Made by a program: the position numbers and the translations under genes. The notes under the pieces were generated by a model. That model searched no databases. It saw nothing but the letters and a program-made list of their open reading frames with translations, and was not told the origin of the DNA. Positions 14,970-50,488 of a DNA stretch of 59,314 nt are shown here, one piece after another; the stretch's first letter is position 1; every line of letters begins with the position of its first letter. Source of the DNA: a virus (lineage: Duplodnaviria; Caudoviricetes); the IMG/VR virus record IMGVR_UViG_3300036768_000707, positions 1 to 59,314 of that record; one strand, 5' to 3'.

Positions 14970-14999
14970 AGTATACGTCAGATGACGTCAGGCTGTCAA
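14970..14999 (-). promoter_or_regulatory. Promoter with palindromic operator (copy 1)
   Basis: TTGACA-gcctgACGTCAtcTGACG-TATACT. Confidence 0.85.
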
Positions 15000-16863: not shown

Positions 16864-17991
16864 TCACGCATCCCCCTCACCGTGCGCGTGAGTCTCAGTT
16901 GAGTCTCGGATGAGGGCGTCAGCACCGAGCCCCACACGCTCAGCCGCAACACGCGCGACGAGTTCGCTATGCTCGATGCCGACGAACGTCCGGCCCTCGC
17001 AGAACGCCGCGACGAGTGTCGAGCCGGAGCCGCAGAACGGGTCGAGCACAGTGCCTTGCTGCGGCACGACGAGGCGGATGAGCCACCGCATGAGCTCGAC
17101 AGGCTTGACGGTCGGATGCTCGTTGCTGACGCGCCCGCGTGCCATACGCTCCCGTACCGAAGCTTTGGCTGTGTAAAAGAACCGTGCAGCGCCCGGAGAC
17201 GCATCGTCGAGTACAGCGATGGGGCAGTCAGGCACACAGCGGAAGGTCTCGCGCTCTCCAAACAGGCCTGGCTCGCGGACTGTCCCGCACCCGGGCGCGT
17301 GTGTAAGCAGCACGTTCGCAGGCCAGCGGCCCTCAGCAGGCGCCGCCCGGCGCGAGTCGTGTTCTCCGGCGTCGCGGATGCGTGCCGCATCGATGTGCAA
17401 AGCTCCCGTCCCATACGTCCGCACAGTCTCCGCCACCGTCCCTTGGGGCTGCTTGCGCACGAGCACAATCGGCTCCCAGGCGGGCTTGAGCCCTGTCCCC
17501 CACCCCGCCCACTCCTCAGCCTCTGCTGTGAAGCCTTGCGCGCGCAGTGTCTGCGCGATGTTGAGGCTCTTGGGAAAGCCCGAACCGTACAACCACATCA
17601 GACAGTCGCGCACGACGAAGCCCGCGTCTTCGAGCCCGCAGGCGAGGCGGTGATACGTCCGAGGCCCGCCAAACGCGACCAGATGGCCCCCCGGGACGAG
17701 TACGCGCAGCGCCTCTTTCCCCCACGCCGTGCAGAACTGCTGGAACTTCTCACCGCCAACATACTGCGATGGCCCGCGGTCGAGGAGATTGGCGTACGCG
17801 CGCTTCAGCTTCGTCTTGCTGCGCGTCCTCCGGTCGAAGCCCTCTGGCTTGAACTCGACCCACGACTCGAACCCGAGCCCATAGGGCGGGTCGGTCACGA
17901 TCGCGTGTACCGATGCTGCAGGCAGACGCTGCATGACACGCACGCAGTCGCCGACAAAGATCTTCCCCCGCTGATCGCTGTCAGTTCTCAT
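16864..17991 (-). CDS. DNA N6-adenine/N4-cytosine methyltransferase (beta class)
   Basis: IVTDPPY, HPTVKPVELMRWL, VLDPFCGSGST. Confidence 0.93.
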   Translation of the reverse strand: MRTDSDQRGKIFVGDCVRVMQRLPAASVHAIVTDPPYGLGFESWVEFKPEGFDRRTRSKTKLKRAYANLLDRGPSQYVGGEKFQQFCTAWGKEALRVLVPGGHLVAFGGPRTYHRLACGLEDAGFVVRDCLMWLYGSGFPKSLNIAQTLRAQGFTAEAEEWAGWGTGLKPAWEPIVLVRKQPQGTVAETVRTYGTGALHIDAARIRDAGEHDSRRAAPAEGRWPANVLLTHAPGCGTVREPGLFGERETFRCVPDCPIAVLDDASPGAARFFYTAKASVRERMARGRVSNEHPTVKPVELMRWLIRLVVPQQGTVLDPFCGSGSTLVAAFCEGRTFVGIEHSELVARVAAERVGLGADALIRDSTETHAHGEGDA

Positions 17992-18359
17992 GGTGACCGC
18001 CGCGGATACCGTAGGGGCTGGGCGAGAGCGACGGTACCACGACAGGAACTGAAGGCACCGCTGCGGATACTCGACGCACCAAGGCGGAGTCCGAAAGTAC
18101 CGGCGCGGTGACTGCGCGTACCGACGCGGATACTCAAGATACCAGCGCGGAGTCTGAAGTACCAGCGTGGGACTTGAAGGTACTGCCGCGGGAACTGAAG
18201 GGACCGGCGTAGGTACTGACGTGACTCAGCTGGGAACTGAAAGAACTGGGGCGGGCACGACAGGTACACACGCGTGCCTTGCGCGCCTGTTCGAGCACGG
18301 CCGCGCGTGGGGCGCGGTGCCAGGCAGTACCGACCTTCCTTCAATGGCGCCGTCATCAT
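17988..18359 (-). CDS. Repeat-containing hypothetical protein
   Basis: ATGA overlaps at both ends; contains degenerate 21-nt repeats. Confidence 0.4.
   Translation of the reverse strand: MMTAPLKEGRYCLAPRPTRGRARTGAQGTRVYLSCPPQFFQFPAESRQYLRRSLQFPRQYLQVPRWYFRLRAGILSIRVGTRSHRAGTFGLRLGASSIRSGAFSSCRGTVALAQPLRYPRRSP
17994..18263. repeat. Degenerate 21-nt tandem repeat (about 12-13 units)
   Basis: Consensus approx. GTACCRNNGCGGRNACTGAAG at 18034, 18055, 18076, 18097, 18118, 18139 (20 nt), 18159, 18180, 18201, 18222, 18243. Confidence 0.75.
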
Positions 18360-19033
18360 CCTCCAAGGTCAGGGCCGGGGAGGAAGAACCCGTGTGACGA
18401 CATGCCGGAGTGCACAAACGCCGCTGTGCGCTCGCTGAGGCGGCGTACAGCTGCCTCAACAGCATCCGTCGAGAAGTGCGCAGCATTGCATTCTGGGATC
18501 TTGAGCCGCGCGGCTGTCTCGGCGAAGTCCGCGGCCGCGCTGAGGAAGACGAACGTCCACCGGTTCGCGCGCGTGCGCGCCCCGATCATCGCCGCAACTT
18601 TCCTGCCCGAGTATCTGCGAGAGCTGTTCTCCCCTCCGTCCGTCATGATGACACAGAGCATGCGGTCGTGCGCCGTCACCTGGCGCGCGTGCGCGTGCTC
18701 CTCGAACTCATCCAGCGTTGTGCCGATCGCGTCATACAGTGCTGTTCTGCCCGAGGGCCTGTACGCATCGAGTGCGTCGTGCACGTGCGCGAGCGACTGC
18801 ATCACTGGCCCCTGTCTGATCGCGTCCGAGAACAGTGTCAGTGTGTACGTGACACGCCCCGCTGTGTCGTGCACGGAGCTGAGGTACGCGCGGACTGCGT
18901 CCACTGTCCTCCGCGCGTACGGCTCCATTGACGCAGACTCATCGAGCACAAGCAGCACATGAAGCTGCGCGGGCGCGTGTGCGTCAAGCTCCTGACGCGC
19001 CTCGACCATCCCGCGACTACGTACTGTCATCAT
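18356..19033 (-). CDS. von Willebrand factor A domain protein
   Basis: MIDAS motif LVLDESASM, TALYDAIG, IMTDGGENSS. Confidence 0.88.
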   Translation of the reverse strand: MMTVRSRGMVEARQELDAHAPAQLHVLLVLDESASMEPYARRTVDAVRAYLSSVHDTAGRVTYTLTLFSDAIRQGPVMQSLAHVHDALDAYRPSGRTALYDAIGTTLDEFEEHAHARQVTAHDRMLCVIMTDGGENSSRRYSGRKVAAMIGARTRANRWTFVFLSAAADFAETAARLKIPECNAAHFSTDAVEAAVRRLSERTAAFVHSGMSSHGFFLPGPDLGG

Positions 19034-19034
19034 C

Positions 19035-19475
19035 TCACTCCTCGCGGGACTGCGCCCGTTGTGCGCAGATAGCGTCGTACGCGGCCTGCACGCGGACGAA
19101 CGCTTGCGCATCTCCGCCTACGTCAGGGTGGAGGATCTTGGCGAGGGCTCGGTACGCAGCGTGCACGACAGCATCTGGCGCGTCAGGCGTGACGTAGAGC
19201 GCTGCGTAATCTGGTTCCTCGCCGAGGCCCGAGTCGTCGCGGATGATGTAGTCGTAGTCCGCGAACGTGCCTAGCACGTCGTAGAGGTAGAAGCGGTGAA
19301 TGCGCCAGACTTTGCGGTCACGGTCCCATTGCCGGAACGAGGGCGGGCACGTCCGGCGCAGATCGTCGAGGCACTCGCGGTCGTATGGGGAGCGGACCTC
19401 GTACCAGTCAGGGTCCGAGGTCCGCTTGACGTGCACCACGTCTGGCGCTCCGTATGATGTGCGTCTGCGCGTCAT
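19035..19475 (-). CDS. J-domain protein with HARP-like N-terminus
   Basis: YAALYV...AAYRALAKILHPDVGG...VQAAYDAI (HPD motif). Confidence 0.85.
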   Translation of the reverse strand: MTRRRTSYGAPDVVHVKRTSDPDWYEVRSPYDRECLDDLRRTCPPSFRQWDRDRKVWRIHRFYLYDVLGTFADYDYIIRDDSGLGEEPDYAALYVTPDAPDAVVHAAYRALAKILHPDVGGDAQAFVRVQAAYDAICAQRAQSREE

Positions 19476-20070: not shown

Positions 20071-20100
20071 AGTATACGTCACGTGACGTGATGCTGTCAA
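20071..20100 (-). promoter_or_regulatory. Promoter with palindromic operator (copy 2)
   Basis: TTGACA-gcatcACGTCAcgTGACG-TATACT. Confidence 0.85.
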
Positions 20101-20115: not shown

Positions 20116-20355
20116 TCATGACGCCAGTGCAGCAGCCCCTGTCACGCGGCGCGCCCTGCGCTTGCGATGCAGCCTGAGCGCGCCCTCGAGCAATAGTGCG
20201 CACTCGTGGCACAGGAGGTGGGCTGAGGCAGCACGTGCTTTGAACATCACCCAGATCCGCGCCTTGCGCGTGCATAGGGCGCAGGGGGCTTTGAGCAAGT
20301 GCGCGTCTGAAACAACTACCCCTCCGATGCTGATCTCGTTCGTCGTCTTGGCCAT
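20116..20355 (-). CDS. Small zinc-binding protein
   Basis: CALC...CHEC; SD GAGGAG. Confidence 0.55.
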   Translation of the reverse strand: MAKTTNEISIGGVVVSDAHLLKAPCALCTRKARIWVMFKARAASAHLLCHECALLLEGALRLHRKRRARRVTGAAALAS

Positions 20356-20398
20356 CTCTTTTCTCCTCTCTGCTGTTCTCTGCTGTTCTCTCTGCTGT

Positions 20399-20614
20399 TC
20401 AGTTCGCGGAGAAGATGTCGAAGTAGTTCAGTCCGGTACGCACGTCGCGGGCTACGCGCACGAGCTCGCCCGCGATGCTAAGCATCACGATACATCGCTC
20501 GCAGCCCTTGTCCTCCGGTGGAGGCGGTGCGTGTTCCGCATGGATCCTCTCGAGCTCCCGGATGATCGCCTCCAAGAAGGCGATCGCGTCCGAGAGGTGG
20601 TCGGCTGTGTCCAT
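20399..20614 (-). CDS. Hypothetical protein
   Basis: SD GGAGG; H...CERC. Confidence 0.6.
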   Translation of the reverse strand: MDTADHLSDAIAFLEAIIRELERIHAEHAPPPPEDKGCERCIVMLSIAGELVRVARDVRTGLNYFDIFSAN

Positions 20615-20830
20615 CTAGTCCTCCAGCCCTTCCCACTCAACATCTCGGTCGAAGCCCTCGCGCTCCAACCGCGCGCAGGCACTACAGAGGATGTAAAACT
20701 CCTCGTAGTACCCGCACTCCTCCGGGTCCAGCCCGGAGCAGTACGACAGTTCATTGTCCGGGTCGATCATCCGGATCGGGATGTATCCCGGCATGTACTC
20801 CGTCTGCTGCTGCTTCTGCGTCTGCATCAT
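20615..20830 (-). CDS. Small acidic Cys-containing protein
   Basis: AGGAGGTG SD after promoter copy 3. Confidence 0.6.
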   Translation of the reverse strand: MMQTQKQQQTEYMPGYIPIRMIDPDNELSYCSGLDPEECGYYEEFYILCSACARLEREGFDRDVEWEGLED

Positions 20831-20848
20831 GTCACCTCCTACATACCT

Positions 20849-20878
20849 AGTATACGTCATGTGACGTGATGCTGTCAA
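20849..20878 (-). promoter_or_regulatory. Promoter with palindromic operator (copy 3)
   Basis: TTGACA-gcatcACGTCAcaTGACG-TATACT. Confidence 0.85.
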
Positions 20879-20890
20879 GGCCTTATATTG

Positions 20891-21046
20891 ACGCGCTCTG
20901 CGTATCCGGCGCTCTCGACATCTGCGGCTCACGCTCAACCCTGACGGCGCTCTCATGTGGGACGGCTCGCTCGTCCGTCGCGGCACTCTCATTGTCTGAC
21001 GGCTCGCTCCTCTGTCTCCGGCGCTCTCGCTATCCCCGGCACGCTC
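20891..21046 (-). ncRNA. TIGR-like dual-repeat guide-RNA array, segment 2 (4 units)
   Basis: Alternating GAGCGAGCCG-like and GAGAG(C/T)GCCG repeats separated by unique 8-9-nt spacers. Confidence 0.8.
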
Positions 21047-21477
21047 TACGCCTCGGCGAACAGGAGCTCGCACTCGTCATCGTCGCACACCCAGTCATCA
21101 TCCTCGTAGGCGACCATCAGCTCCTCGATCTGGTCGATCGCGCGCTGCGCATCGGCGTCGTACCGCGCGACGTGATTTTGACCGTCCCACTCGCTCTCGT
21201 AACCCGCGATGATGCGTTCGGCGAGCGGCTGGATGGTGGCTAGCAGCTCGTCGAGGGCCTCGGCGGTGATGTAGGGCGAGATGTGCCAGCACAGCACGTG
21301 GCCGTGGTACACGTCCATCGGGACTGCATCACCGACCTCCGGATCGTAGTCGGCCAGGATCGCGCCGTCGCGCGCATCGATGGCGACGACCGCTCGTTGC
21401 GGGCGCGTCTGCCGCGGATACTTCCAGTACAGCGGATGCTGCGCATATACGCCGGTGTTGTTGATGATCGTCTTCAC
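21046..21477 (-). CDS. Hypothetical protein embedded in the array (paralog of 23793-24212)
   Basis: AAGGGAGG SD plus GTG at 21477; HPLY, D(A/V)RDG, VP..VY.G, PLAER shared with the paralog. Confidence 0.75.
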   Translation of the reverse strand: MKTIINNTGVYAQHPLYWKYPRQTRPQRAVVAIDARDGAILADYDPEVGDAVPMDVYHGHVLCWHISPYITAEALDELLATIQPLAERIIAGYESEWDGQNHVARYDADAQRAIDQIEELMVAYEDDDWVCDDDECELLFAEA

Positions 21478-21502
21478 TGAGACCTCCCTTCTACACAGTT
21501 GC

Positions 21503-21800
21503 TGGCGCTCAACGGCATCGGTACGCTCATCTCGCAACGGCTCGCTCCCTGTCACCTCGGCACTCTCACTACCCACGGCTCGCTCAGCGGCATCGGCACT
21601 CTCTCTTCTCCTCGGCTCGCTCCGCTGACGCGGCGCGCTCAATCTGCAACGGCTCGCTCTGATCGAAACGGTACGCTCCCGATCTTCGGCTCGCTCGCTA
21701 CCAGCGGCACCTCTCGCATGCGACGGCTCGCTCACGGACTCCGGCGCTCTCAATTGTTACGGCTCGCTCGGCACATGCGGCACTCTCGCCGACCCCGGCT
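21503..21800 (-). ncRNA. TIGR-like dual-repeat guide-RNA array, segment 1 (8 units)
   Basis: Invariant CGGCTCGCTC (+ strand) at 21538, 21576, 21613, 21650, 21687, 21724, 21760 alternating with CGGYRC(G/T)CTC variants at 21519, 21558, 21594, 21631, 21669, 21705, 21742, 21778; unique 8-10-nt spacers; period 36-38 nt. Confidence 0.88.
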
Positions 21801-22623
21801 ACGGCCAGTTGGGCGGCGCGATCATGTGCGCGTGCCCGCCATGCTCGATGACGTACGGCCGGGGCGGCGGCGTGCCGTACCGCAGCACGTACATCACGTG
21901 GTGCAGGTGCGCGAGCAAGAGCTTGACAGCGTACCGCCGTGCCCGTAGCTCGATCCGACCGAGCGGCAGCCGGCCCGCCTCGTACGCCGCGCGTGTCGCA
22001 GCATCGATGATGTTGCGCTCGGCGAGCGTCTGGCGCGCGAGGTCGGCGTACTCGCCGCGCTCGTTGCGCGCAAGCTCCAGCGCCTTGCGCTCCTCGTAGA
22101 TGCGACCGTAGAAGTCTTTCGGCGAGTTCCGGTGTTTCACGAAGCTGTCGCCCAGATTCCAGCAGATCGTCTTGAGCCGAGCGTTCCACGGCCGCTTCTG
22201 CCCTTTGCGCCACGTCACGGTGGGGTCGAGGCCCGCGAACCGCCAGATGTGACCGACGGTCGGCGCGCGCTCGATATCGATATGCGCGAGCAGACCGGCG
22301 GCGATGACAGGGCCGATGCCGTGGACGCTCTTCAGCCAGCGGCCCTCCGGCAGGGCATCAGTCCACTTGTCGAGGGCGCGCTGAATCTGCTGTTCCAGCG
22401 TCGCCATCTGCTCGAGCATCCAGCGCAGCACCTCGTTGCTCTCGCCGGACTCGGATGTGGCGCGCACCTGCGACTGTGCGCTGATGCGATACTCCTGTAC
22501 CTGGTAGTACGCGTCTACCAGATACCGCGCCTCTGCGCGTCCGAGACCGCGCGCATGACGCGCGAGGTCCCGCGTGAGCCGAGTGATCGGCTCGAGATCT
22601 AAGTCGATGGTAGTAGCAGTCAT
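21799..22623 (-). CDS. Nop/IS110-C-terminal-domain RNA-binding protein without nuclease domain (TasA-like)
   Basis: 274 aa: coiled coil then LKSVHGIGPVIAAGLLAHIDIERAPTVGHIWRFAGLDP...YGRIYEERK...ARRYAVKLLLAHL...PYVIEHGGH; no N-terminal RuvC DEDD domain and no IS110 catalytic SG motif; abuts the array. Confidence 0.82.
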   Translation of the reverse strand: MTATTIDLDLEPITRLTRDLARHARGLGRAEARYLVDAYYQVQEYRISAQSQVRATSESGESNEVLRWMLEQMATLEQQIQRALDKWTDALPEGRWLKSVHGIGPVIAAGLLAHIDIERAPTVGHIWRFAGLDPTVTWRKGQKRPWNARLKTICWNLGDSFVKHRNSPKDFYGRIYEERKALELARNERGEYADLARQTLAERNIIDAATRAAYEAGRLPLGRIELRARRYAVKLLLAHLHHVMYVLRYGTPPPRPYVIEHGGHAHMIAPPNWP

Positions 22624-22753
22624 GTCCCTCCCCAGATCTGGTGCTGATGCGTGACACGCGCGACGCACACGCGCGCGCGCATGCACGCGCAGCTAAGCGG
22701 GCTAGTGAGTGAGATGCTTCGGTTAGATCATGCGCGTACCTCCCTCTCCCCTG

Positions 22754-22822
22754 TATGTACGTCATCTGACGCAAACTTGTCAAGGGGGGGCCTTGACACC
22801 AGCACGTCAGATGACGTATGAT
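22754..22822. promoter_or_regulatory. Divergent promoter pair with operators (copies 4 and 5)
   Basis: Minus: TTGACA-agtttGCGTCAgaTGACG-TACATA (towards the tas-like gene); plus: TTGACA(22793)-ccagcACGTCAgaTGACG-TATGAT(22817). Confidence 0.82.
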
Positions 22823-22847
22823 ACGGATGAAGGGAGGTACAGCAGCA

Positions 22848-23270
22848 ATGGACATCATCAGGACGGAACACGGCACGGTAACGGTCGACGAGAAGGTGGC
22901 CACGCTCACGACAACGAGTGGCGTCACGGTCACGTGTCGCCGCGGCGCCAGTGGGAAGTGGCAGCGGCGGCAGATCGACGCCGCCTTCCGGGAGGGGGAG
23001 GTCTCCCTCCGGGAGGTGAAGGCGCTCGAGCAGATGTTCGGGGTGCTCGTGAAGAGCACCCCGGAGCGCGTTGGTGGGCGCGTGCGCGACGAGGAGTTCT
23101 TCCTGCTCGTCGCGGCGTGTAAGACGATGCACCGCGAGATCGCGACGCTGCTCGCGGCAGCGCGCGACCGCGGGGACGTCGCGATGGAAGCCCAGATCGT
23201 CGGGATCCGGGACGCGTTCTTCAACCTCAGCGATCAGGTTATCGCCGCCAAGAAGGCAGCGGCAAAGTAG
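22848..23270 (+). CDS. Hypothetical protein
   Basis: GGGAGGT SD after promoter copy 5. Confidence 0.7.
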   Translation: MDIIRTEHGTVTVDEKVATLTTTSGVTVTCRRGASGKWQRRQIDAAFREGEVSLREVKALEQMFGVLVKSTPERVGGRVRDEEFFLLVAACKTMHREIATLLAAARDRGDVAMEAQIVGIRDAFFNLSDQVIAAKKAAAK

Positions 23271-23281
23271 GAGGGAACACA

Positions 23282-23485
23282 GTGAACAAGCGACAGGCGG
23301 AAGCTCTCTCAACCCGGATCGAGCGCGAGTCGCCATCGACTCGCGTGACGGGGTTTAGACGGTGGCGGTTCGGACAGACGGTGTGCTACGTCATCGATGC
23401 CGAAGACGTGCGGACCGGCTACCCGTTCATCGTCTACGACGAAGAGGACTGGAACGAGCGGATGGCGCGCGTGGAGCCGGCCTAA
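23282..23485 (+). CDS. Hypothetical protein
   Basis: GGAGGG SD plus GTG. Confidence 0.6.
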   Translation: MNKRQAEALSTRIERESPSTRVTGFRRWRFGQTVCYVIDAEDVRTGYPFIVYDEEDWNERMARVEPA

Positions 23486-23738: not shown

Positions 23739-23768
23739 TTGACACCCATACGTCAGATGACGTATGAT
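23739..23768 (+). promoter_or_regulatory. Promoter with palindromic operator (copy 6)
   Basis: TTGACA-cccatACGTCAgaTGACG-TATGAT. Confidence 0.85.
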
Positions 23769-23792
23769 ACAGGGGAAGGGAGGTACAGCAAG

Positions 23793-24212
23793 ATGGACGA
23801 CATCAAGATCATCATCAGCGGAGCGGGCAAGCACCCGCTCTACCAGTTGGGTCCCGACCGGGAACCGAACCCGGCGGTGATCGAACTCGACGTCCGCGAT
23901 GGCACGCTTCGTGCGTACGCGGACGACGCGCAGTCGGACACCGTCCCTTGGGCGGTGTATCAGGGGGCAGTTCGCTGGTTCGAGATCAATCCGAAGATCT
24001 CGCGCCAGGCCCTCGAACAGCTGCTCGAAGACATGCGGCCGCTCGCGGAGCGGGTGGTCAGCGGGCACTACATCCCAACACCGCGCGGGCGCGTGCGGCT
24101 CAGCTGGGATGCGAAGCGAGCGCTCGAGCAGATCGAGTGGCTAGCGGAAGAACACGAGCTCGACGCCGAACCGTGCGGCGAGCTCGGATGCGACATCTGC
24201 GGGGCACAGTAG
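23793..24212 (+). CDS. Hypothetical protein (paralog of 21046-21477)
   Basis: GGGAGGT SD; aligns by eye with the array-embedded gene. Confidence 0.75.
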   Translation: MDDIKIIISGAGKHPLYQLGPDREPNPAVIELDVRDGTLRAYADDAQSDTVPWAVYQGAVRWFEINPKISRQALEQLLEDMRPLAERVVSGHYIPTPRGRVRLSWDAKRALEQIEWLAEEHELDAEPCGELGCDICGAQ

Positions 24213-28747: not shown

Positions 28748-28777
28748 ATCATACGTCAGATGACGTACGCTTGTCAA
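28748..28777 (-). promoter_or_regulatory. Promoter with palindromic operator (copy 7)
   Basis: TTGACA-agcgtACGTCAtcTGACG-TATGAT. Confidence 0.85.
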
Positions 28778-31815: not shown

Positions 31816-31845
31816 ATCATACGTCATCTGACGTATGCTTGTCAA
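31816..31845 (-). promoter_or_regulatory. Promoter with palindromic operator (copy 8)
   Basis: TTGACA-agcatACGTCAgaTGACG-TATGAT. Confidence 0.85.
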
Positions 31846-32108
31846 CCCTTTCTGGCGGAATCTTGGGAGAAATTTTCCAGCACCTCGGCGATGCGCGCAC
31901 GCGCGAGCGGCGATGGCCGCACCTCCCCCAGCTCCCAGCGCTGCACTGTGCGGAACGCGACAGCCAACAGGTCGGCAAGCTGCTGCTGCGTCAGCTTATG
32001 CTGTCGCCTGAGCGCCCGCAGCTCGCGCCCAACCCGCGTCTGCTCCCGCTTCCGCCGTGAGCCCGGACCCTTCCCTCTCTGCGTCACGTCCTGTTTCGTC
32101 TTGAGCAT
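31842..32108 (-). CDS. XRE/Cro-C1 family HTH transcriptional regulator
   Basis: LRALRRQHKLTQQQLADLLAVAFRTVQRWELGEVRP. Confidence 0.9.
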   Translation of the reverse strand: MLKTKQDVTQRGKGPGSRRKREQTRVGRELRALRRQHKLTQQQLADLLAVAFRTVQRWELGEVRPSPLARARIAEVLENFSQDSARKG

Positions 32109-32151: not shown

Positions 32152-32236
32152 ATAATACGTCATGTGACGCGGATGTATCAAGCTCGCACGCAGCCACAAT
32201 GGTGGGTTGACAGAGGTACGTCACATGACGTATACT
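32152..32236. promoter_or_regulatory. Divergent promoter pair with operators (copies 9 and 10)
   Basis: Minus: TTGATA-catccGCGTCAcaTGACG-TATTAT (towards the XRE gene); plus: TTGACA(32207)-gaggtACGTCAcaTGACG-TATACT(32231). Confidence 0.82.
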
Positions 32237-34252: not shown

Positions 34253-35239
34253 TCAGCTCCCAATGACCTTAGCACGCATTGTCAGCGCCATAAACTCTGC
34301 GCGCAACGACTGGTTAGATCTGAACTCACCAGACATGGACGACGTCACCGTCTCCGAACCGAACGCGCGCGGGCCTCGGATGATCATGCACGTGTGCACA
34401 GCGGACATGACGACAGCGACATCTGGACACTCGGAGGTTTCGCCGACTGCCTGAGCGACGCGCCTGTTGATGCGCGCGCAGAGGTCTTCTTGCATCGAGA
34501 GAGATGACGCCTCCTGCACGACAATGCGTGGGATCTTCGACAGACCCAGCACCTCCCCTTTGGCGAGATAGCCGACATGCACTGTGCCGATGTAGGGCAG
34601 CAGGTGATGTGCACACATCGAGAACACAGGGATGTCACGGACGACGATGAGGTCCGAGGTGTCACACGCAAACCGCGTCTCGCGGATCGGCGCTTCTCGG
34701 CATGTGCGCCACTCGTCGTAGAACGCGAGCACACGCCTCGGCGTCTCGATAAGATCCGGATGTGCTGGATCTCCCCCAGCATACTCGATGAGTCTGCGGA
34801 CAGCATCTTCGGGGGAAGAGTCGAAAGGCTGCTCCCACGGAAACTCGATCCATACATCCGACGCCGAACGCGGCGAGAACGCATACATGAGGTCGAACGA
34901 TGATAACACTTCTGAGCGATGACACAGGGCGAGGACGCCGGTTGGTGTCAGGCCGTATGACGCGATCCTGTCGAGCGCCCTCCGCACCGTCTCCCCTGAC
35001 ACTACGATGTCGTCAACGACCCAGATCGGGCCTCGCGTCTTCTCCGTCACCTCATCGAGAGGCACGACGTCGACCGAGAGTCTCGACGGGCGCACAGAAG
35101 CGAGCGCGAGGGCGGCAGCAACGCCCCCTCTCGGAATGCCGACGAGTGTGCGCGGCAGGTCTTTCACCTCGCATGTCGCGCGCAGCGTATCCCAGATCTC
35201 ACGGCAAAGATCCTGGATGTCGCTCATCGTCAGCTTCAT
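34253..35239 (-). CDS. folE: Phosphoribosyltransferase - GTP cyclohydrolase I fusion
   Basis: N-term LVGIPRGG, VVDDIVVSGET, WIEFPWE (type I PRTase); C-term ETPRRV, SMCAHHLLPY.G, GLSKIPR, QEDL, HTCMIIRG (FolE). Confidence 0.9.
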   Translation of the reverse strand: MKLTMSDIQDLCREIWDTLRATCEVKDLPRTLVGIPRGGVAAALALASVRPSRLSVDVVPLDEVTEKTRGPIWVVDDIVVSGETVRRALDRIASYGLTPTGVLALCHRSEVLSSFDLMYAFSPRSASDVWIEFPWEQPFDSSPEDAVRRLIEYAGGDPAHPDLIETPRRVLAFYDEWRTCREAPIRETRFACDTSDLIVVRDIPVFSMCAHHLLPYIGTVHVGYLAKGEVLGLSKIPRIVVQEASSLSMQEDLCARINRRVAQAVGETSECPDVAVVMSAVHTCMIIRGPRAFGSETVTSSMSGEFRSNQSLRAEFMALTMRAKVIGS

Positions 35240-35430
35240 CGCGCCAGCTCCTCGCTCGCGGGCGCTTGCGCTGCAGATCCGGAGTGCGAGTGGCGAAGGA
35301 AGCACTCGGGGCAGTACGTGACGTCGCTCATCTCGCTGCACCAGCACGTATGCGCATCCTCCAGAAGCAGCAGCTCTTCACACACCGAACACTTCGCCCG
35401 CCAGCCTTCGCTCGTTGCATAGACCTTCAT
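35236..35430 (-). CDS. Small zinc-binding protein
   Basis: CSVC...CWC...CPEC; GGAGGTG SD; ATGA overlap. Confidence 0.55.
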   Translation of the reverse strand: MKVYATSEGWRAKCSVCEELLLLEDAHTCWCSEMSDVTYCPECFLRHSHSGSAAQAPASEELAR

Positions 35431-35612: not shown

Positions 35613-36350
35613 TCAGACGCCCATCCGATGGCCATACGCGAGCGTGTGAAGCTGAGGGAGTACGGCGACGTCGAGCTGTCTTGCGCGCACGAACTCGACG
35701 AGCCGGACGTAGCGGTCGAGCAGTGTCTCGCGCGTGTCATCCAGCCGTGTCAGGCAGGAGAAGCAGATGTCGAGTTCGAGGTCCGGCTGGTTGCCGTACA
35801 CGACGTACAAGCCCTCCGCGAAGTCTCTGTCCGCGCGCGAGTCGGGGTCAACAACGATCTTCAGCCCGACCGGCACGGACGTACGCGTGCACGCCTCGAA
35901 GTACCGCTCGAGCGTCTGCCGGCGCCTCGGCGTCCAAGGGGAGCCCGCCGACGGGGGCTTCGGCGAGAGCGTGATGTAGTCGCAGAGCAGGACCCAGGAG
36001 CGGTATACGGTCGCTTGCGTCTCGACCGTGACCGCGTGCCCGCGTGACCGTAGCTCTAAGACGAGCTCCGAGAGGTCGTGCAGCAGCGGATTGCCGCCGC
36101 TCAGCGTAACCCAGCGCACGTATGCGAGTTGCGCATGCTCTCGCAGAATCTCCTCCGTCGTCAGGTTCCGCCACTCGCTCCTGTAGCGAGGGTCAACGGA
36201 GGTCAGCGTGTCACACCACCTGCACCAGCCGCCTTCCCCTGCGCCGTCGCAGAAGCCGAACCGGATGAACGTCGTCTGCTGGCCGATGAGCTTGCCCTCT
36301 CCAGCGACGACTGGGCCATACAACTCCGAGATGGGGAAGCGTCCGTTCAT
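35613..36350 (-). CDS. queE: 7-carboxy-7-deazaguanine synthase (radical SAM)
   Basis: ISELYGPVVAGEG..IG...FIRFGFC...CRWCDT, VTLSGGNPL, VETQ, TLSPKPPS, LPQLH. Confidence 0.92.
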   Translation of the reverse strand: MNGRFPISELYGPVVAGEGKLIGQQTTFIRFGFCDGAGEGGWCRWCDTLTSVDPRYRSEWRNLTTEEILREHAQLAYVRWVTLSGGNPLLHDLSELVLELRSRGHAVTVETQATVYRSWVLLCDYITLSPKPPSAGSPWTPRRRQTLERYFEACTRTSVPVGLKIVVDPDSRADRDFAEGLYVVYGNQPDLELDICFSCLTRLDDTRETLLDRYVRLVEFVRARQLDVAVLPQLHTLAYGHRMGV

Positions 36351-36757
36351 CGTGCGAACTCGGCCCAGCACTTCGCCGTCTCGTACACGCGCACACGCGA
36401 CACAGGCAGGCGCGCGTGCTCGCACGCCTGGAACAGGAAGCGAGCGAGGCGCTCAGCTGTCGGCACACGCGCGTCGCTCACGTCGTCCTCCGTGCCAGAC
36501 GTCCGTACGAGCTGCTCCAGCGTCTCGTTGAGGTCGAAGTGGTCGAGGTACTGCTCGAGCAGGGGCTTGACCACGCGGTCGATATGCGCGAAGTCGAGCA
36601 CCATGCCCGTCTGCGGCCCCGACGCCTGGAGCTCGTCCTGCATGAGCTCGATGTCCGCTCGGTAAGAGTGGCCATGCGGCCTTCGGCACTTACCGTCATG
36701 CTCTGGCAGGTGGTGCGCTGCCTCGAACGTGTACTGCTTGCAGATCCGGTACGGCAT
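36347..36757 (-). CDS. queD: 6-carboxy-5,6,7,8-tetrahydropterin synthase
   Basis: FEAAHHL...GKCRRPHGHSY, GMVLDF, LDHFDLN, PTAE, VYET. Confidence 0.95.
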   Translation of the reverse strand: MPYRICKQYTFEAAHHLPEHDGKCRRPHGHSYRADIELMQDELQASGPQTGMVLDFAHIDRVVKPLLEQYLDHFDLNETLEQLVRTSGTEDDVSDARVPTAERLARFLFQACEHARLPVSRVRVYETAKCWAEFAR

Positions 36758-41380: not shown

Positions 41381-42220
41381 CTACTCTTCCGCTAGCACAG
41401 TGAATGCGGTTTCGTCGTACGCCTTCGGCGGCGTCGATGACGCCCCGAGGAGGTACGCGAAGATCTGCCCCAGGTCTGGATCGTCGATGATAGGCGGCAC
41501 AGGACGCGAGGGCAGGGCGCGCGCCTTCGTCACGTATTCCGGATGCGTCCCGACGCGCAGAAGACGCTTCGGCTGATCTTGACCAATCACCTCCTCTGTG
41601 TACAACCTGCCTACTAAGTACATCGGTGGAATCAGCGACGAGAGCGCCGCAGGGGAAACATCTGGTTGTGTGATGCGATCGCCGCCTTCTACATCTCCGC
41701 GCCTCCGTTCTTGTGCCGTGAAGATCACGTGCATCCGCAGCAGCCGGAACTGGAACACGATCTCTTCCATCAAGTTCCCAACTTTGCCCCAGTCCTGTTG
41801 CGTCAGGACCGCGGGGTCATGATCGAGAGGCCGCTCTTTGACCGTCTTCCGTTTGGCGAGATTCTGCGCGCCAGTGAGCGAATCGAGAGCGACCCACTTG
41901 TACTCGCGCTTATTCGGCCTTAGAATGGTCGCGAACAGCTCTTCGAACTGCTCCCAGCGAGTAATTTGGATGATGTCGATCTTGTCCTCCCATTCCGAGA
42001 GGACGTGTGTGCCTCCCTCGATCTGAGGAATATCGACGACTAACCCCTTTCCAGGCATCGTGTGCAGCAGCGTTGTCTTCCCGACACCTCCACGGCCGTA
42101 GATGCAGGCCGCGATCCTCGTCAAGTTTCCAGACGGCTTTCTGATGCGTGATTCAAGCGATCCAGATTCTTCAGGTGAAGAGGGCGGCGAAGTCTTCTTC
42201 GTCATCTGTCCTGCGTTCAT
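41381..42220 (-). CDS. AAA_24 / Sak4-like recombination ATPase
   Basis: IYGRGGVGKTT, VALDSLT, QQDWG, VIFTAQE. Confidence 0.85.
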   Translation of the reverse strand: MNAGQMTKKTSPPSSPEESGSLESRIRKPSGNLTRIAACIYGRGGVGKTTLLHTMPGKGLVVDIPQIEGGTHVLSEWEDKIDIIQITRWEQFEELFATILRPNKREYKWVALDSLTGAQNLAKRKTVKERPLDHDPAVLTQQDWGKVGNLMEEIVFQFRLLRMHVIFTAQERRRGDVEGGDRITQPDVSPAALSSLIPPMYLVGRLYTEEVIGQDQPKRLLRVGTHPEYVTKARALPSRPVPPIIDDPDLGQIFAYLLGASSTPPKAYDETAFTVLAEE

Positions 42221-43256
42221 ACCTGTTCGACTCCTTCCTGGTAAAGAGCTGACGCTCGAGAGGCGCAACTTCTCCGCCTGTGATCACAGCCTCACACAGG
42301 CGCGCGTACGGGCAGTAGTCGCAGTGCGTGCCGATCGACCGCACAGGGTCGGAATGCGCGAGTTCGGGGAGAGCGGTCACGATCTCTCTTGCTGACGTGA
42401 TGAAGTCGCGCAGTAAGATCCCCTCATCGGAGACGATGGGCACAGCCATGCGCGGATAGAACATGCGCTCTTCGCGTCCTTCGAGCAGCACGCGCATATC
42501 TTCGTAGTCTTCAGGATCGAGCCCGAGCTTCAGAATCTCTTCGTAGTAGACGGCCCAAGTCGTGTCGAGGTTCTTGCGGCGACTGAGCTCTCCGGTCTTC
42601 AACTGCTCTGGGACGCTCGGGGGCTTCGTCCTCAGGTAGTTCCAGATGACCAGATCGACGCGCGGGACCGTTTCCGAAAAGACCTGCTCCGCGACCGCTT
42701 TGTAGAGTGTCGTCTGCAGGTCGCGGAGTCTGCGCATCGTGCGCGGGATAGACCTGACGGTCTTATGCTCCCACAAAGCAATATTGCCGTCGCGATCGCG
42801 TGTCACGAGATCAATCGTGCCAACCGTGTTCACGCCGGGAATGAGTGGATAGCTGAACGGCTCTTCGACCAGCAGCACGGCGAATGAGCTTGCGTCCGCG
42901 TGCCCGCGCACGACGAAGTACCGAGATGCGATCCTCACGATCTCGTCCCACATCGCGCCATACGTATCTCCGAGTTCGACATCGGACAAGGCGTATGCTG
43001 CATCGCGCGCGAGCTCTAGCTCCGACCGCCACTTCGCCTCAATGTCCGCGAGAGACGCAGCGTGCGCCGCTCTTGGGTGCATCGCACCCTGAAGCCGCTT
43101 GTAGTAGAGCTCGAGATACTCGTGCAGAATCTCCCCCAGAGAAAGCTGAGGCCCTTTGAACTTCGGGCGCAGCTTCTCGACGTATGCGTACGCATACTTC
43201 TTTCTGCATTCTCTCCAGGTGGAGATCGCAGAATAGGAAAGCGTGAGTTGTGTCAC
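42171..43256 (-). CDS. PD-(D/E)XK (RecB/Cas4-like) exonuclease
   Basis: LSYSAI..WREC, GEILHEYLE, GTIDLV, WEHKT, HCDYCPYARLC. Confidence 0.88.
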   Translation of the reverse strand: MTQLTLSYSAISTWRECRKKYAYAYVEKLRPKFKGPQLSLGEILHEYLELYYKRLQGAMHPRAAHAASLADIEAKWRSELELARDAAYALSDVELGDTYGAMWDEIVRIASRYFVVRGHADASSFAVLLVEEPFSYPLIPGVNTVGTIDLVTRDRDGNIALWEHKTVRSIPRTMRRLRDLQTTLYKAVAEQVFSETVPRVDLVIWNYLRTKPPSVPEQLKTGELSRRKNLDTTWAVYYEEILKLGLDPEDYEDMRVLLEGREERMFYPRMAVPIVSDEGILLRDFITSAREIVTALPELAHSDPVRSIGTHCDYCPYARLCEAVITGGEVAPLERQLFTRKESNRYERRTDDEEDFAALFT

Positions 43257-45958: not shown

Positions 45959-46660
45959 TCATCCATGCTTCTGTCTCCCGTGCAGTCTCCGGTATGCGCT
46001 GAGGACATCGAGTTGAGCGCGTAAGAATGGTTCCCATTCCGACAGGGGGAGCGAAAAGAACTGCGTCCAGGGCGCACGATGCGTCTTGATCCACTCCCAC
46101 GGTTTCTCACCATCGTATGTCTCAATGATGCCGTTATTCTCTAATGCGACCCAGCGACGGAAACATGACATGCATCGTCCGCACCGGATGAGAGAAGAAT
46201 CGTAGCAGGAGAGTGTCGCACGCAGAGCGTCCGGATCGCCACCGCACTCGAGATAGGCCCGTACGGCTTCCGTCTTGGTCATCTTGTGCAGCGGCGAATA
46301 GACGCGGACGGGCTTCTGCGCAGTATATGAGAGCAGAGAAGACATGCTCTTGAAGAAGCGCTTGTGCTTGTCGCGCGAGTACTCGCCTGCGACTGCGCAG
46401 AGCAGCACCTCATCCGCATCCGTCATCGCTTGCGCCTGAGTAACAAGCAACACATTCCGTTGTGGTACGAACCCATCTTCACGTTCGATGGTTGTGAGTT
46501 GCGGCCCAGCGACGACACGCACATCTGGCCCGAGATGCGCGATCTCTTTGTCCGCATACCGCGTACGGAGGTCGATATGCAGCAGGATCGCGTCTGGGAT
46601 CAACTTCGAAGCGATGAACGAATCAAGACCTCCCGAGTACAGAATGACGCGGTTCATCAC
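45959..46660 (-). CDS. queC: 7-cyano-7-deazaguanine synthase
   Basis: LYSGGLDS, FVPQRN, TKTE, TLSCY...CGRCMSCFRR. Confidence 0.9.
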   Translation of the reverse strand: MMNRVILYSGGLDSFIASKLIPDAILLHIDLRTRYADKEIAHLGPDVRVVAGPQLTTIEREDGFVPQRNVLLVTQAQAMTDADEVLLCAVAGEYSRDKHKRFFKSMSSLLSYTAQKPVRVYSPLHKMTKTEAVRAYLECGGDPDALRATLSCYDSSLIRCGRCMSCFRRWVALENNGIIETYDGEKPWEWIKTHRAPWTQFFSLPLSEWEPFLRAQLDVLSAYRRLHGRQKHG

Positions 46661-48414: not shown

Positions 48415-49475
48415 ACCGCGCGGTACGTCAACGGCATCCAGTACTTGTAGGGAGTGTCTGGTGCGTCGATGAGCACGATCGACCGCGGGTCAGTGTAGTG
48501 GATCGTGAGCTCACTAGCGAGCTGTTTCGCCACGCCCAGGAACTCAGCATCAAAGTTCAGTTCGATATCAGGGACAGCCTGTGTGTCCATCGTCGTCACG
48601 AACGTACCCACCTCTTTGTCCGCGACGATGAATCCCGAAGTACCTTCGCGCACGCGGAACCGCACGACGCGGTTGGCGTCGAGAATGGCAGCTGCTCGCT
48701 CCGCTGCGGCAATGGCCGAAGCCGGGACTTTGACCGTGTACTTGAACGTGCGCGGCAACGTTCCGAGTCCCGGATACTGCCCAGACAACGCTGAAAGCAC
48801 GACGCGCGTGCGCGTGTCATGAAGCACGATGTGCGACGAATTGAACTGGATGCTAAACTCCGGATCCATCAGCGAGATCGCAGTGAGCAGATCAGCGACG
48901 GGAGCAGTGACGTGAGGCTTGTCTTCGTTCTTGGAAATTGTGGTCGGCACATACGGGACGATCGCGGCACGGCCGATACCATCTGTCGCCTGAAGCACGA
49001 GCTTCCCTTTGACGACCGAGATGTTGACGCCTGTCAGTACAGGACTGTGCATACGCTTCGCTGCGACCTGATCGAGAAACGCGATCAGCGGCCGGATGCC
49101 ATCTCGGGTGCAGCCAGCAGAACACGTTGGAGTGATGCTCTTCGCTTGATATCTCCGCGATTTCTGGATGTTGAACGCCATTGTAGACTTCGCCACCGCG
49201 AGAACAAGTTGCCCACGCGACAGCGTTAGCTTCGCCTCTTCTTCCTGATCGAAGATAGCGAGAGCTGACGTGAGCTTATCGCCTGCAACTGCGACTGGTT
49301 CTGTCAACCCAATCTTCGTTCCCGGGGCTACGGATTCTGCTGCGCAGTGCAGACCTTCGAATGAAACCGTGAGCTCTTTTCCGTCATCTTCTGAGAAGGT
49401 GAGTGTCTTCGACCCTGTATCGAGGGAAGCGAGACTCCAGAGAGAAACGAGTTGGGCGAGTTCTCGTACGTTCAC
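48411..49475 (-). CDS. DNA polymerase III beta-clamp-like protein
   Basis: PVLTGVNI...LQATDG.GR, LSGQYP, NFDAEFL; 354 aa. Confidence 0.8.
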   Translation of the reverse strand: MNVRELAQLVSLWSLASLDTGSKTLTFSEDDGKELTVSFEGLHCAAESVAPGTKIGLTEPVAVAGDKLTSALAIFDQEEEAKLTLSRGQLVLAVAKSTMAFNIQKSRRYQAKSITPTCSAGCTRDGIRPLIAFLDQVAAKRMHSPVLTGVNISVVKGKLVLQATDGIGRAAIVPYVPTTISKNEDKPHVTAPVADLLTAISLMDPEFSIQFNSSHIVLHDTRTRVVLSALSGQYPGLGTLPRTFKYTVKVPASAIAAAERAAAILDANRVVRFRVREGTSGFIVADKEVGTFVTTMDTQAVPDIELNFDAEFLGVAKQLASELTIHYTDPRSIVLIDAPDTPYKYWMPLTYRAV

Positions 49476-50488
49476 GATGTGCTCCAGTTCAGAGGAAGGG
49501 GAGAATGCGCTAGAATGGGTCGGTTCTGGTTTGCGAGCTCCTGCCTTTCAAGAAATACCTTGATCGCTACTTCGAACTTCGCTTGTTGTGAGCCTCCAGG
49601 TTCGAGAAGCACCTTTGGGTCATAGCCCCAACTTCTCACCTTTTCTTCGAAGAACCGAGACTTCGAGACCTCACGCGTAGACATTGGGACATCGCGCCTG
49701 TACATGAACTGGCCATACGCCCCAAACCGAACACAGTTGAGCCAAGTAGTCGAATCGAAGCTATCGAACGTCGTCTGTTCGAGGACGCTAGGAAGCGACG
49801 TACCAAGATAGTGAGAGTAGACGTGTGCCTGTCGCGCCTGATCAGCAAGATATCGTGATCTGCGCCGAAGCTTGATTGCATCCTGTCCCGGAATAGCGAC
49901 GTACTTGTAGTCGCGCAGCATCGCATTCCAGCGCGGATATGGCGGAGGATCAACTTCTGGATGCCATACGACGATGAGCCGATCTCCGACGATGCGCTTG
50001 ATCTGGTCGCGCGACCAGTCAGCTACCGCAACGCCTGGAATCCATTTGCCGTCGTCACGCACGATCCGGAACTTGTCGAGGTCCATCTCAACGACGAAGT
50101 CCCACGTGTCGAGATGTTCTTCTAGATAGCGAAGATAGCGTGCAATGTAGTCTTTCACAAGCTGGTACGGCAATGTTGGGTCCGCTTTGCGTTCAACAGC
50201 TTTCGCAGATGCAGCCTTCGGCTGTGACTTTGCTGACCGGTCGACAGCGCCATACTTCCGCATGAGAGTGTAAACACCCGAGTCGAGATAACGGTACTGT
50301 GGCCACTCATCTAAGATCGGCCTGATGCGCTTATCCCAACGAGATGAACGCGATATCTCCCAGAACGAACAGAGAAGAGCATCTGCCTGACAGGCGAGGA
50401 GAGCTCGTGCAGTAAGTTCGGACTGCGCGCCCGCGAAGACGATGAGCCTCTTCTCAGGAAACATCGTCTTCGGTCGTATCCTTGTCAT
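49472..50488 (-). CDS. DpdA-like DNA 7-deazaguanine transglycosylase (TGT fold)
   Basis: LLCSFW...YLDSGVYT, EMDL, IVVWH, YVAI, HYLG, SFDSTTW motifs; same genome encodes folE/queD/queE/queC. Confidence 0.72.
   Translation of the reverse strand: MTRIRPKTMFPEKRLIVFAGAQSELTARALLACQADALLCSFWEISRSSRWDKRIRPILDEWPQYRYLDSGVYTLMRKYGAVDRSAKSQPKAASAKAVERKADPTLPYQLVKDYIARYLRYLEEHLDTWDFVVEMDLDKFRIVRDDGKWIPGVAVADWSRDQIKRIVGDRLIVVWHPEVDPPPYPRWNAMLRDYKYVAIPGQDAIKLRRRSRYLADQARQAHVYSHYLGTSLPSVLEQTTFDSFDSTTWLNCVRFGAYGQFMYRRDVPMSTREVSKSRFFEEKVRSWGYDPKVLLEPGGSQQAKFEVAIKVFLERQELANQNRPILAHSPLPLNWSTS

Follow-up and report, generated by a model that had tools for sequence, protein, structure and literature searches.

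The window analysed here is the whole of a linear viral contig of 59,314 bases (IMG/VR record IMGVR_UViG_3300036768_000707; GC 60.5%; estimated completeness about 79%). Its PHROG matches include a major head protein, portal, terminase, head-tail adaptor, tail proteins, DNA polymerase, primase, and helicase; the contig is therefore that of a tailed phage. On the minus strand lie tasA, which encodes a 274-amino-acid (aa) protein related to the Tas family, 2 blocks of a TIGR array of short guides, and an open reading frame (ORF) of 143 aa between the blocks (Table 1). An initial annotation, made from the sequence alone, had read this locus as a TIGR-TasA-like RNA-guided system, and that interpretation was supported by Tas homology in both sequence and fold, by the nuclease-free protein, and by the dual-repeat array. 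The analysis established a nuclease-free Tas homologue that keeps its processing pair, a dual-repeat architecture, and, across relatives, the association of protein with array and the covariation of the repeat boxes. The locus is real and well formed but is an ordinary representative of TIGR-TasA, a family that appeared in print in 2025 and whose functional description was extended in 2026. As a whole, the locus is very probably best explained as a dual-repeat TIGR-TasA system on a tailed phage that works by the mechanism proposed below.

The TasA protein

The ORF contains the motifs quoted in the initial annotation, namely GIGP at residues 102-105, AGLDP at 130-134, ARRYAVK at 228-234, and PY..GH at 256-257 and 263-264. 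A phmmer search of PDB matched TasR (9mty_A) with an E value of 9e-20 over two stretches, residues 71-188 and 225-273, and TasH (21kl_A) with 7.2e-13, whereas the IS621 recombinase reached only 0.02. The family phrog_4285, named "transposase," matched TasA over its full length (1.4e-49).

The AlphaFold2 model of TasA, built from a 50-sequence alignment, was all-helical (predicted local distance difference test 89.4; predicted template modelling score 0.85), with two long helices, residues 29-59 and 64-89, that make a hairpin. Foldseek ranked TasH and TasR chains exclusively at positions 1-10 (E 7e-8 to 1e-6), followed by IS621 and ISCro4 (approximately 3e-3 to 1e-2). Likewise, VIA-align, run against 48,161 chains, returned TasH (Z 19.6, 222 aligned residues, root-mean-square deviation (rmsd) 3.5; model 27-274 against chain 66-309) and TasR (Z 18.9, 194 aligned residues, rmsd 2.3; model 28-274 against chain 111-322) ahead of ISCro4 (Z 13.0), with all lower rows being coiled-coil look-alikes over residues ~26-100. 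Because the alignments begin at residue 66 of TasH and residue 111 of TasR, TasA corresponds to the part of these proteins that follows their nuclease domains. The lack of a RuvC or HNH domain was thus upheld: just ~26 residues, poorly ordered in the model, precede the coiled coil, the model has no N-terminal domain, and no DEDD, RuvC, or HNH family was matched in Pfam at E values up to 1.

In IS110 transposases, the serine of the Ser-Gly motif after GL.P is catalytic. TasA was correctly described as lacking this motif, since it reads AGLDPTVTWRKGQKRPWN where TroIS110 has GLTPRKFTSGE (Faure et al., Table S1; compared by eye); the family consensus at this position is W.KG.KRPWN, and TasA itself has ...WRKG....

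SpTasH matures its own guides by means of Y289 and H296 in a C-terminal loop, as described in PMC13421893, and this Tyr/His pair is reported to be kept by dual-repeat Tas proteins and missing in stem-loop ones (10.64898/2026.09.09.750476). Residues Y257 and H264 of TasA aligned with Y289 and H296 of SpTasH (sequence from NC_020844), with a spacing of +7 in both proteins. H264 was invariant and Y257 at least 90% conserved in the 50-sequence alignment. Judged by these alignments, TasA keeps the Tyr/His pair for processing of pre-tigRNA. The predicted cut site is GAGCG^AGCCG, by analogy with the TaTasR edge cut UGCG^AGCCA, which is read from the synthetic tigRNA1 (AGCCA, 9 nt, UGAAACCCA, 9 nt, UGCG; Faure et al., Table S3, PMC12045711).

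The guide array and its relatives

Each unit of the array consists of AGCCG, spacer A, a GAGAGYGCCG-like loop repeat, spacer B, and GAGCG. The exact repeat GAGCGAGCCG was found 9 times in the window, always on the minus strand and between 20963 and 21769, compared to an expected 0.69, and none of 100 shuffles reached 9. The degenerate form GAGMGNRCCG had 23 matches, 21 of them on the minus strand within 20907..21787, compared to an expected 6.9 (0 of 100 shuffles reaching 23). TRF reported arrays with a period of 36-37 at the locus. Twelve units were parsed, with repeats of 10 nucleotides (nt), once 11 and once 12, and spacers of 8-10 nt. The initial description of the array held for its start at the tasA stop codon, its alternating repeats, the range of its spacers, and its 12 units; however, the array is not continuous, being split by the ORF into 8 and 4 units. 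A unit length of "about 36 nt" was accurate for 4 units but is not uniform, as 7 units are 37 nt and 1 is 38 nt long because of 9-10-nt spacers or an 11-nt loop. The edge repeat had been called invariant, but two copies deviate, namely GAGCGTGCCG, which heads block 2, and the 12-nt GAGCGTGAGCCG. Three loop repeats are of the GAGCGTACCG or GAGCGCGCCG type, and one loop repeat is 11 nt long. Box D (GAG) and box C (CCG) ends were present in every edge and loop repeat.

The TAG stop codon of tasA (21801-21799) overlaps AGCCG, the 3' half of the 10-nt repeat, which forms the 5'-truncated first edge of block 1; the 3' end of this block is a 3'-truncated edge, GAGCG. The first edge of block 2, GAGCGTGCCG, begins at the G of the TAG stop codon of the inter-array ORF (21046-21048), and 15 nt separate the truncated GAGCG at the end of the block from the -35 box of the promoter that follows. 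For tasA as well as for the inter-array ORF, the stop codon overlaps the first edge repeat of the block behind it, and the genes therefore abut the guides without a gap. In the closest relative found, locus L002, the tasA stop codon also overlaps the first edge repeat.

TIGR arrays have been described as having two alternating repeats of 8-12 nt, spacers of ~9 nt, and mostly 5-15 units, beginning at a 5'-truncated edge and ending at a 3'-truncated edge, with a terminator as a typical feature; TasA, the Nop-only protein, is given as the commonest Tas form (Faure 2025, PMC12045711). The locus agrees with this definition, including the truncated ends, and a terminator is the sole typical feature that it does not have. 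A CRISPR array was rejected, given two alternating 10-nt repeats with 8-10-nt spacers and no Cas family among 68 ORFs compared to PHROGs. The sole PHROG row labelled "CRISPR/Cas system associated" was a weak secondary match (7e-7) of an exonuclease ORF at 42171-43256. Rfam at gathering thresholds gave 0 matches, and a tRNA search found 0 genes.

Among known systems, SpTIGR-TasH of Salicola phage CGphi29 (NC_020844; PDB 9w03, 9w04, and 21kl) is likewise phage-borne, and its 10-nt repeats and 8-nt spacers make a 36-nt unit. Its repeat cores, AAGCGAGCCA and AAGACAACCA, are nearly identical to GAGCGAGCCG and GAGAGYGCCG of this locus (Faure et al., Table S1). The repeats had been described as differing from the CCA/UG-type boxes of TIGR arrays; they proved to be a close variant of the SpTIGR repeats, with box C reading CCG rather than CCA, a variant common in the clade of this TasA, and with GAG rather than AAG on the box D side. 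TasH is also the best structural match to TasA, and its Y289/H296 pair is the counterpart of Y257/H264. In contrast, SpTasH has an N-terminal HNH nuclease (residues 1 to ~65) and cuts DNA, whereas TasA has no nuclease, and the two proteins share only ~22-25% sequence identity. TaTasR (PDB 9mty) has the same coiled-coil and Nop scaffold, a C-terminal ...EHGGH..PP.W loop, and the edge core GCGAGCC; it differs in being archaeal, in carrying a RuvC nuclease (residues 1 to ~110), and in having repeats and spacers of 9 nt and UG as box D.

FpTIGR of Flavonifractor plautii, compared here by its description in PMC12045711, resembles the locus in that a dual-repeat array lies downstream of a Nop-only Tas protein, and differs in its repeat sequences and its 9-nt spacers. 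MbTasA and PlTasA are nuclease-free as well, and according to their reports (10.64898/2026.09.09.750476; 10.64898/2026.08.11.744272) both bind target DNA through both spacers; however, they are of the stem-loop type, whereas this locus is of the dual-repeat type with a C-terminal processing loop. The tasParB operons described by Faure et al. similarly have arrays downstream of genes and between operon genes, but the gene that separates the two blocks in this locus does not resemble ParB and is not conserved with tasA. The IS110/IS621 bridge-RNA recombinases (PDB 8wt6 and 9t56) share an RNA-binding coiled coil, a Nop-like fold (Z 13.0), and a Transposase_20 match with TasA; unlike them, TasA has no DEDD domain or SG motif and is accompanied by many short guides rather than one bridge RNA, and the similarity is far weaker (E 0.02).

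A word-index search found at least 5,147 homologues of TasA among 8,000 scored candidates, and the 120 matches listed were 264-345 aa long. In IMG/VR, 220 stretches encode TasA relatives; the counts that follow refer to the best 80 of these 220 (49-86% identity). An array with a TRF period of 35-38 was present in 64 of the 80 loci. With a regular expression (edge, 8-9 nt, loop, 8-9 nt, half-edge), at least 3 units were found on the tas strand in 71 loci and at least 3 on the other strand in 0; the 939 matches obtained include some that are out of register, since the edge pattern is also satisfied by some of the loop repeats. The repeats of these relatives follow GAGCGAGCCR for edges and GAGAGnnCCR for loops, with A or G as the last base. 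In the 29 of 80 loci callable for both repeats (51 were not), the last base of box C was G in edge and loop in 16 and A in both in 13, with 0 mixed. This covariation fits a symmetric dimer that reads both repeats, the explanation to which Faure et al. attributed the covariation of box C and box D between repeats (PMC12045711).

Contigs representing one genome per species held 33 loci with relatives, including those of Effusibacillus consociatus, Acidobacteriaceae bacterium KBS 96, and Halomonas sp. NO4; 13 of the 33 had at least 3 regular-expression matches, on the tas strand only. Cultured phages yielded only distant protein relatives (25 records with identities of 24.5-31%, all below 80% query coverage) and no DNA match. 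The motifs of this clade occur at least 190 and at least 273 times in Table S1 of Faure et al. (PMC12045711), and the clade is therefore already catalogued.

Proposed mechanism, rival explanations, and targets

This phage TIGR-TasA, with its twelve two-part guides, most likely binds DNA that matches them and leaves it uncut. Transcription of tasA, block 1, the ORF, and block 2 as a single unit would be driven by one of the ten stereotyped promoters of the phage. TasA would then dimerise by its coiled-coil hairpin, since the solved homologues dimerise, and by homology its dimer would bind the box D (GAG) and box C (CCG) ends of the repeats. The Tyr257/His264 loop could cut the precursor inside each edge, at GAGCG^AGCCG, as the biochemistry of SpTasH and the conserved residues suggest, and guides of 36-38 nt would be expected for this locus. 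Each guide may direct the dimer to DNA composed of spacer A and the reverse complement of spacer B, with one spacer per strand, following the geometry of the TaTasR oligonucleotides. The complex would bind and bend this DNA and block transcription or replication of the target, as a 2026 preprint shows for other TasA proteins; binding rather than cutting is proposed because TasA is without a nuclease domain, and it would be aimed at DNA of the host or of rival elements.

This scheme draws on published work in which Tas dimers bind box C/D ends, the edge repeat is cut by Tas proteins of the dual-repeat type, and each spacer pairs with one DNA strand. FpTasA is reported to bind 36-nt tigRNAs (PMC12045711), and the TaTasR oligonucleotides place spacer A and then the reverse complement of spacer B on one strand of the target (Faure et al., Table S3, PMC12045711). 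The stem-loop protein MbTasA represses transcription in Escherichia coli in a guide-dependent and reversible manner, as described in 10.64898/2026.09.09.750476, and is the functional model adopted for this locus. Published work already covers the TIGR-Tas family, the TasA proteins as one of its branches, and their RNA-guided repression (PMC12045711; 10.64898/2026.09.09.750476).

Several observations weigh against this reading. With respect to the protein, the only Pfam match of TasA was a 41-residue match to Transposase_20 (PF02371, 1.1e-6), and no Nop family was matched at E values up to 1. A fold comparison with Nop5, Prp31, IS110, and Tas structures, as proposed in the initial annotation, bore out the Tas part, with Tas chains at ranks 1-10 and IS110-type chains weaker; no Nop5 or Prp31 chain was among the rows listed by Foldseek or VIA-align, in which the rows below Tas and IS110 were coiled-coil look-alikes. 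The Nop link of Tas proteins rests on the published TasR structure (PMC12045711). The Transposase_20 match, together with a PHROG family and several database names that read "transposase," would be in keeping with a truncated IS110-family transposase remnant beside an unrelated short tandem repeat. We give this explanation practically no credence. The phmmer scores (0.02 for IS621 compared to 9e-20 for TasR) refute it, as do the fold match in VIA-align and the homologue lengths, which point to a conserved full-length form rather than a fragment. In addition, no DEDD_Tnp_IS110 family was found in Pfam at E values up to 1, the model has no N-terminal domain, and ...WRKG... stands where TroIS110 reads ...TSGE.... 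The initial annotation had named truncated IS110 relatives without arrays as an outcome that would speak against it; co-oriented arrays were instead found in 71 of the 80 related loci.

With respect to the array, 8 of the 12 units are 37-38 nt long, whereas 875 of the 939 regular-expression matches in relatives, a pattern that admits 8-9 nt only, had 8+8-nt spacers; some guides may be impaired by a length over 36 nt. No intrinsic (Rho-independent) terminator followed either block, with 0 terminator-like sites in a scan of 20300..23400. These features could also indicate a decaying or partly inactive TIGR-TasA with an intact protein, in which many guides have lost the 36-nt register, a gene inserted into the array has split it, and most units no longer bind. 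The variant edges GAGCGTGCCG and GAGCGTGAGCCG, the three GAGCGTACCG- or GAGCGCGCCG-type loops, and an unrelated ORF between the blocks agree with such decay, as does the fact that just 4 of 12 units are 36 nt long. However, TasA is full length and keeps all 39 family-invariant residues (50-sequence alignment, with TasA included as its first row), no repeat has lost its box D or box C end, relatives too have split arrays and 9-nt spacers, and 9-nt spacers are described for other TIGR clades (PMC12045711). We therefore consider decay to be very unlikely.

With respect to function, the RNA-guided repression described in the MbTasA report is that of a stem-loop protein and not of a dual-repeat TasA of this clade, and target searches gave no signal above background. 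At up to 3 mismatches in the window, the 12 guides had 3 matches in the published geometry compared to a shuffled mean of 4.8; the search covered two geometries, with 5 and 3 matches compared to shuffled means of 4.3 and 4.8. Against 113 related loci (~0.65 Mb), the guides of the phage had 0 exact, 0 one-mismatch, and 2 two-mismatch matches. The 16-mer target of unit 4, described below, was found in 17 stretches of viral contigs compared to 69 for a wrong-geometry control, and these were scattered except for duplicate contigs. The target matches of unit 4 are at noise level and have no common context. Noise-level target matches with spacers this short are something that the literature warns of. 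Conversely, the 769 unique spacer pairs of the relatives, a set derived by regular expression in which some pairs are out of register, had 0 exact, 0 one-mismatch, and 25 two-mismatch matches in the window, compared to 26-46 for mispaired controls. No self-referential guides were found against the arrays of the window at up to 3 mismatches, and the guides of the relatives did not match these arrays either. The targets are not within the 59 kb of the phage itself and most likely lie in the host or in competing mobile elements.

Unit 4 of block 1 (window 21691-21655) is the only guide common to the phage and L002 (L002:4110-4160), whose TasA is 86% identical and whose tasA DNA is 84% identical. 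All 16 of 16 bases of its spacers A (AAGATCGG) and B (TTCGATCA) are kept in L002, with one extra T in the window phage, while the two loci differ at 3 of the 10 positions of its loop repeat and also in the upstream edge repeat. All remaining guides are unrelated between the two phages, which indicates fast guide turnover. Selection on unit 4 against a conserved site in a host or rival element, combined with a TasA that also tolerates 8-10-nt spacers (37-38-nt tigRNAs), is an unlikely combination. If it were true, unit 4 would give the first natural target for a dual-repeat TasA, and the tolerance of 8-10-nt spacers would be a flexibility not described for dual-repeat systems.

Rather than repressing by simple steric means, TasA might be a targeting module that brings in a separate effector acting in trans; candidates would be a nuclease, a methyltransferase, or a factor for partition or integration. 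Effector-like partners, for example in tasParB operons or as an aid to integrases, are raised by Faure et al. (PMC12045711), and the same strand carries, 1.4-4 kb downstream, genes for a DNA methyltransferase, a von Willebrand factor A (vWA) protein, and a J-domain protein. These downstream genes have promoter motifs of their own, however, and no neighbour is conserved with tasA: 0 of 6 neighbouring ORFs had a tblastn match in the 80 related loci, and no ParB family was matched in 14 neighbours (Pfam). Recruitment of this kind appears highly improbable.

As a dual-repeat TIGR-TasA, the locus is one more well-resolved phage example and leaves knowledge of TIGR-Tas unchanged. It could be useful in a search for natural targets, given the long contig, tasA under a recognisable class of phage promoter, the intact processing loop of TasA, and one guide common to a relative.

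Promoter motifs and neighbouring genes

The motif TTGACA-N6-CGTCAnATGACGTA occurs 10 times in the window, compared to an expected 0.01. It can be written as a promoter-operator motif, TTGACA-N6-CGTCAnnTGACGTA, in which the -35 and -10 boxes enclose a palindromic core, ACGTCAnnTGACGT. The ten copies are probably the regulated early promoters of the phage, and on this basis the tasA operon appears to be part of a set of stereotyped phage transcription units. Two pairs of copies are divergent, and one pair flanks a helix-turn-helix repressor-like gene at 31842-32108.

Table 1. Features of the TIGR-TasA locus and copies of the promoter motif in the window
Feature	Position	Strand	Remarks
Promoter-like site upstream of tasA	22754..22783	-	motif match; putative function
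tasA, 274-aa nuclease-free Tas protein	21799..22623	-	coiled-coil hairpin, Nop-type RNA-binding domain, C-terminal Y257/H264 loop
TIGR array block 1	21506..21800	-	8 tigRNA units
Units of block 1	21800-21765, 21764-21729, 21728-21692, 21691-21655, 21654-21618, 21617-21581, 21580-21543, 21542-21506	-	
ORF between array blocks, 143 aa	21046..21477	-	GTG start at 21477 after GGGAGG
TIGR array block 2	20894..21046	-	4 tigRNA units
Units of block 2	21041-21005, 21004-20968, 20967-20932, 20929-20894	-	
Promoter motif copies	14974-14999, 20075-20100, 20853-20878, 22758-22783, 28752-28777, 31820-31845, 32156-32181	-	
Promoter motif copies	22793-22818, 23739-23764, 32207-32232	+	

The promoter-like site of tasA comprises TTGACA (22783..22778), an 18-nt spacer with the palindromic CGTCAGATGACG, and a weak -10-like TACATA (22759..22754); because this -10 box ends in A, the site was not listed by a generic sigma-70 scan. 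The motif copy at 22783..22758 lies 135 nt upstream of the start codon and faces the divergent copy at 22793..22818, and another copy (20878..20853) directly follows block 2. The tasA leader of ~130 nt (22624-22753, minus strand) contains a strong GGGAGG followed by a three-codon mini-ORF, ATG ATC TAA (22731-22723), as well as a GC-rich stretch of alternating purines and pyrimidines (GCGCGTGCATGCGCGCGCGCGTGTGCG...).

The 143-aa inter-array ORF had no Pfam or PHROG match, and a search of the Atlas gave no usable feature match, with all structure rows below a template modelling score of 0.45. A precomputed family label for it is PF26929. It has a paralogue at 23751..24212 on the plus strand (38% identity, E 4e-24); apart from this pair, the searches returned only two relatives in databases and three in viral contigs. 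The ORF and its paralogue each stand behind a copy of the promoter motif and have AVP.DVYHG, PLAER..G, and an acidic Cys-containing tail in common. The ORF was absent from all of the 80 related tasA loci, and neither TasA nor an array was found within 2.5 kb of its three viral relatives. It is therefore probably not a TIGR component or accessory gene, nor the ParB-like gene of tasParB operons.

Downstream on the minus strand are an N6/N4 DNA methyltransferase (16864-17991), a vWA-domain protein (18356-19111), and a J-domain protein (19035-19475). Amid the replication genes, a 7-deazaguanine DNA modification set was observed on the minus strand (34253-35347, 35613-36425, 45959-46660, and 49472-50488), consisting of GTP cyclohydrolase, QueE-like radical S-adenosylmethionine, QueC-like, and queuine tRNA-ribosyltransferase-like (DpdA-type) proteins. 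As a matter of speculation, modified G in the phage DNA might influence the pairing of guides with self DNA.

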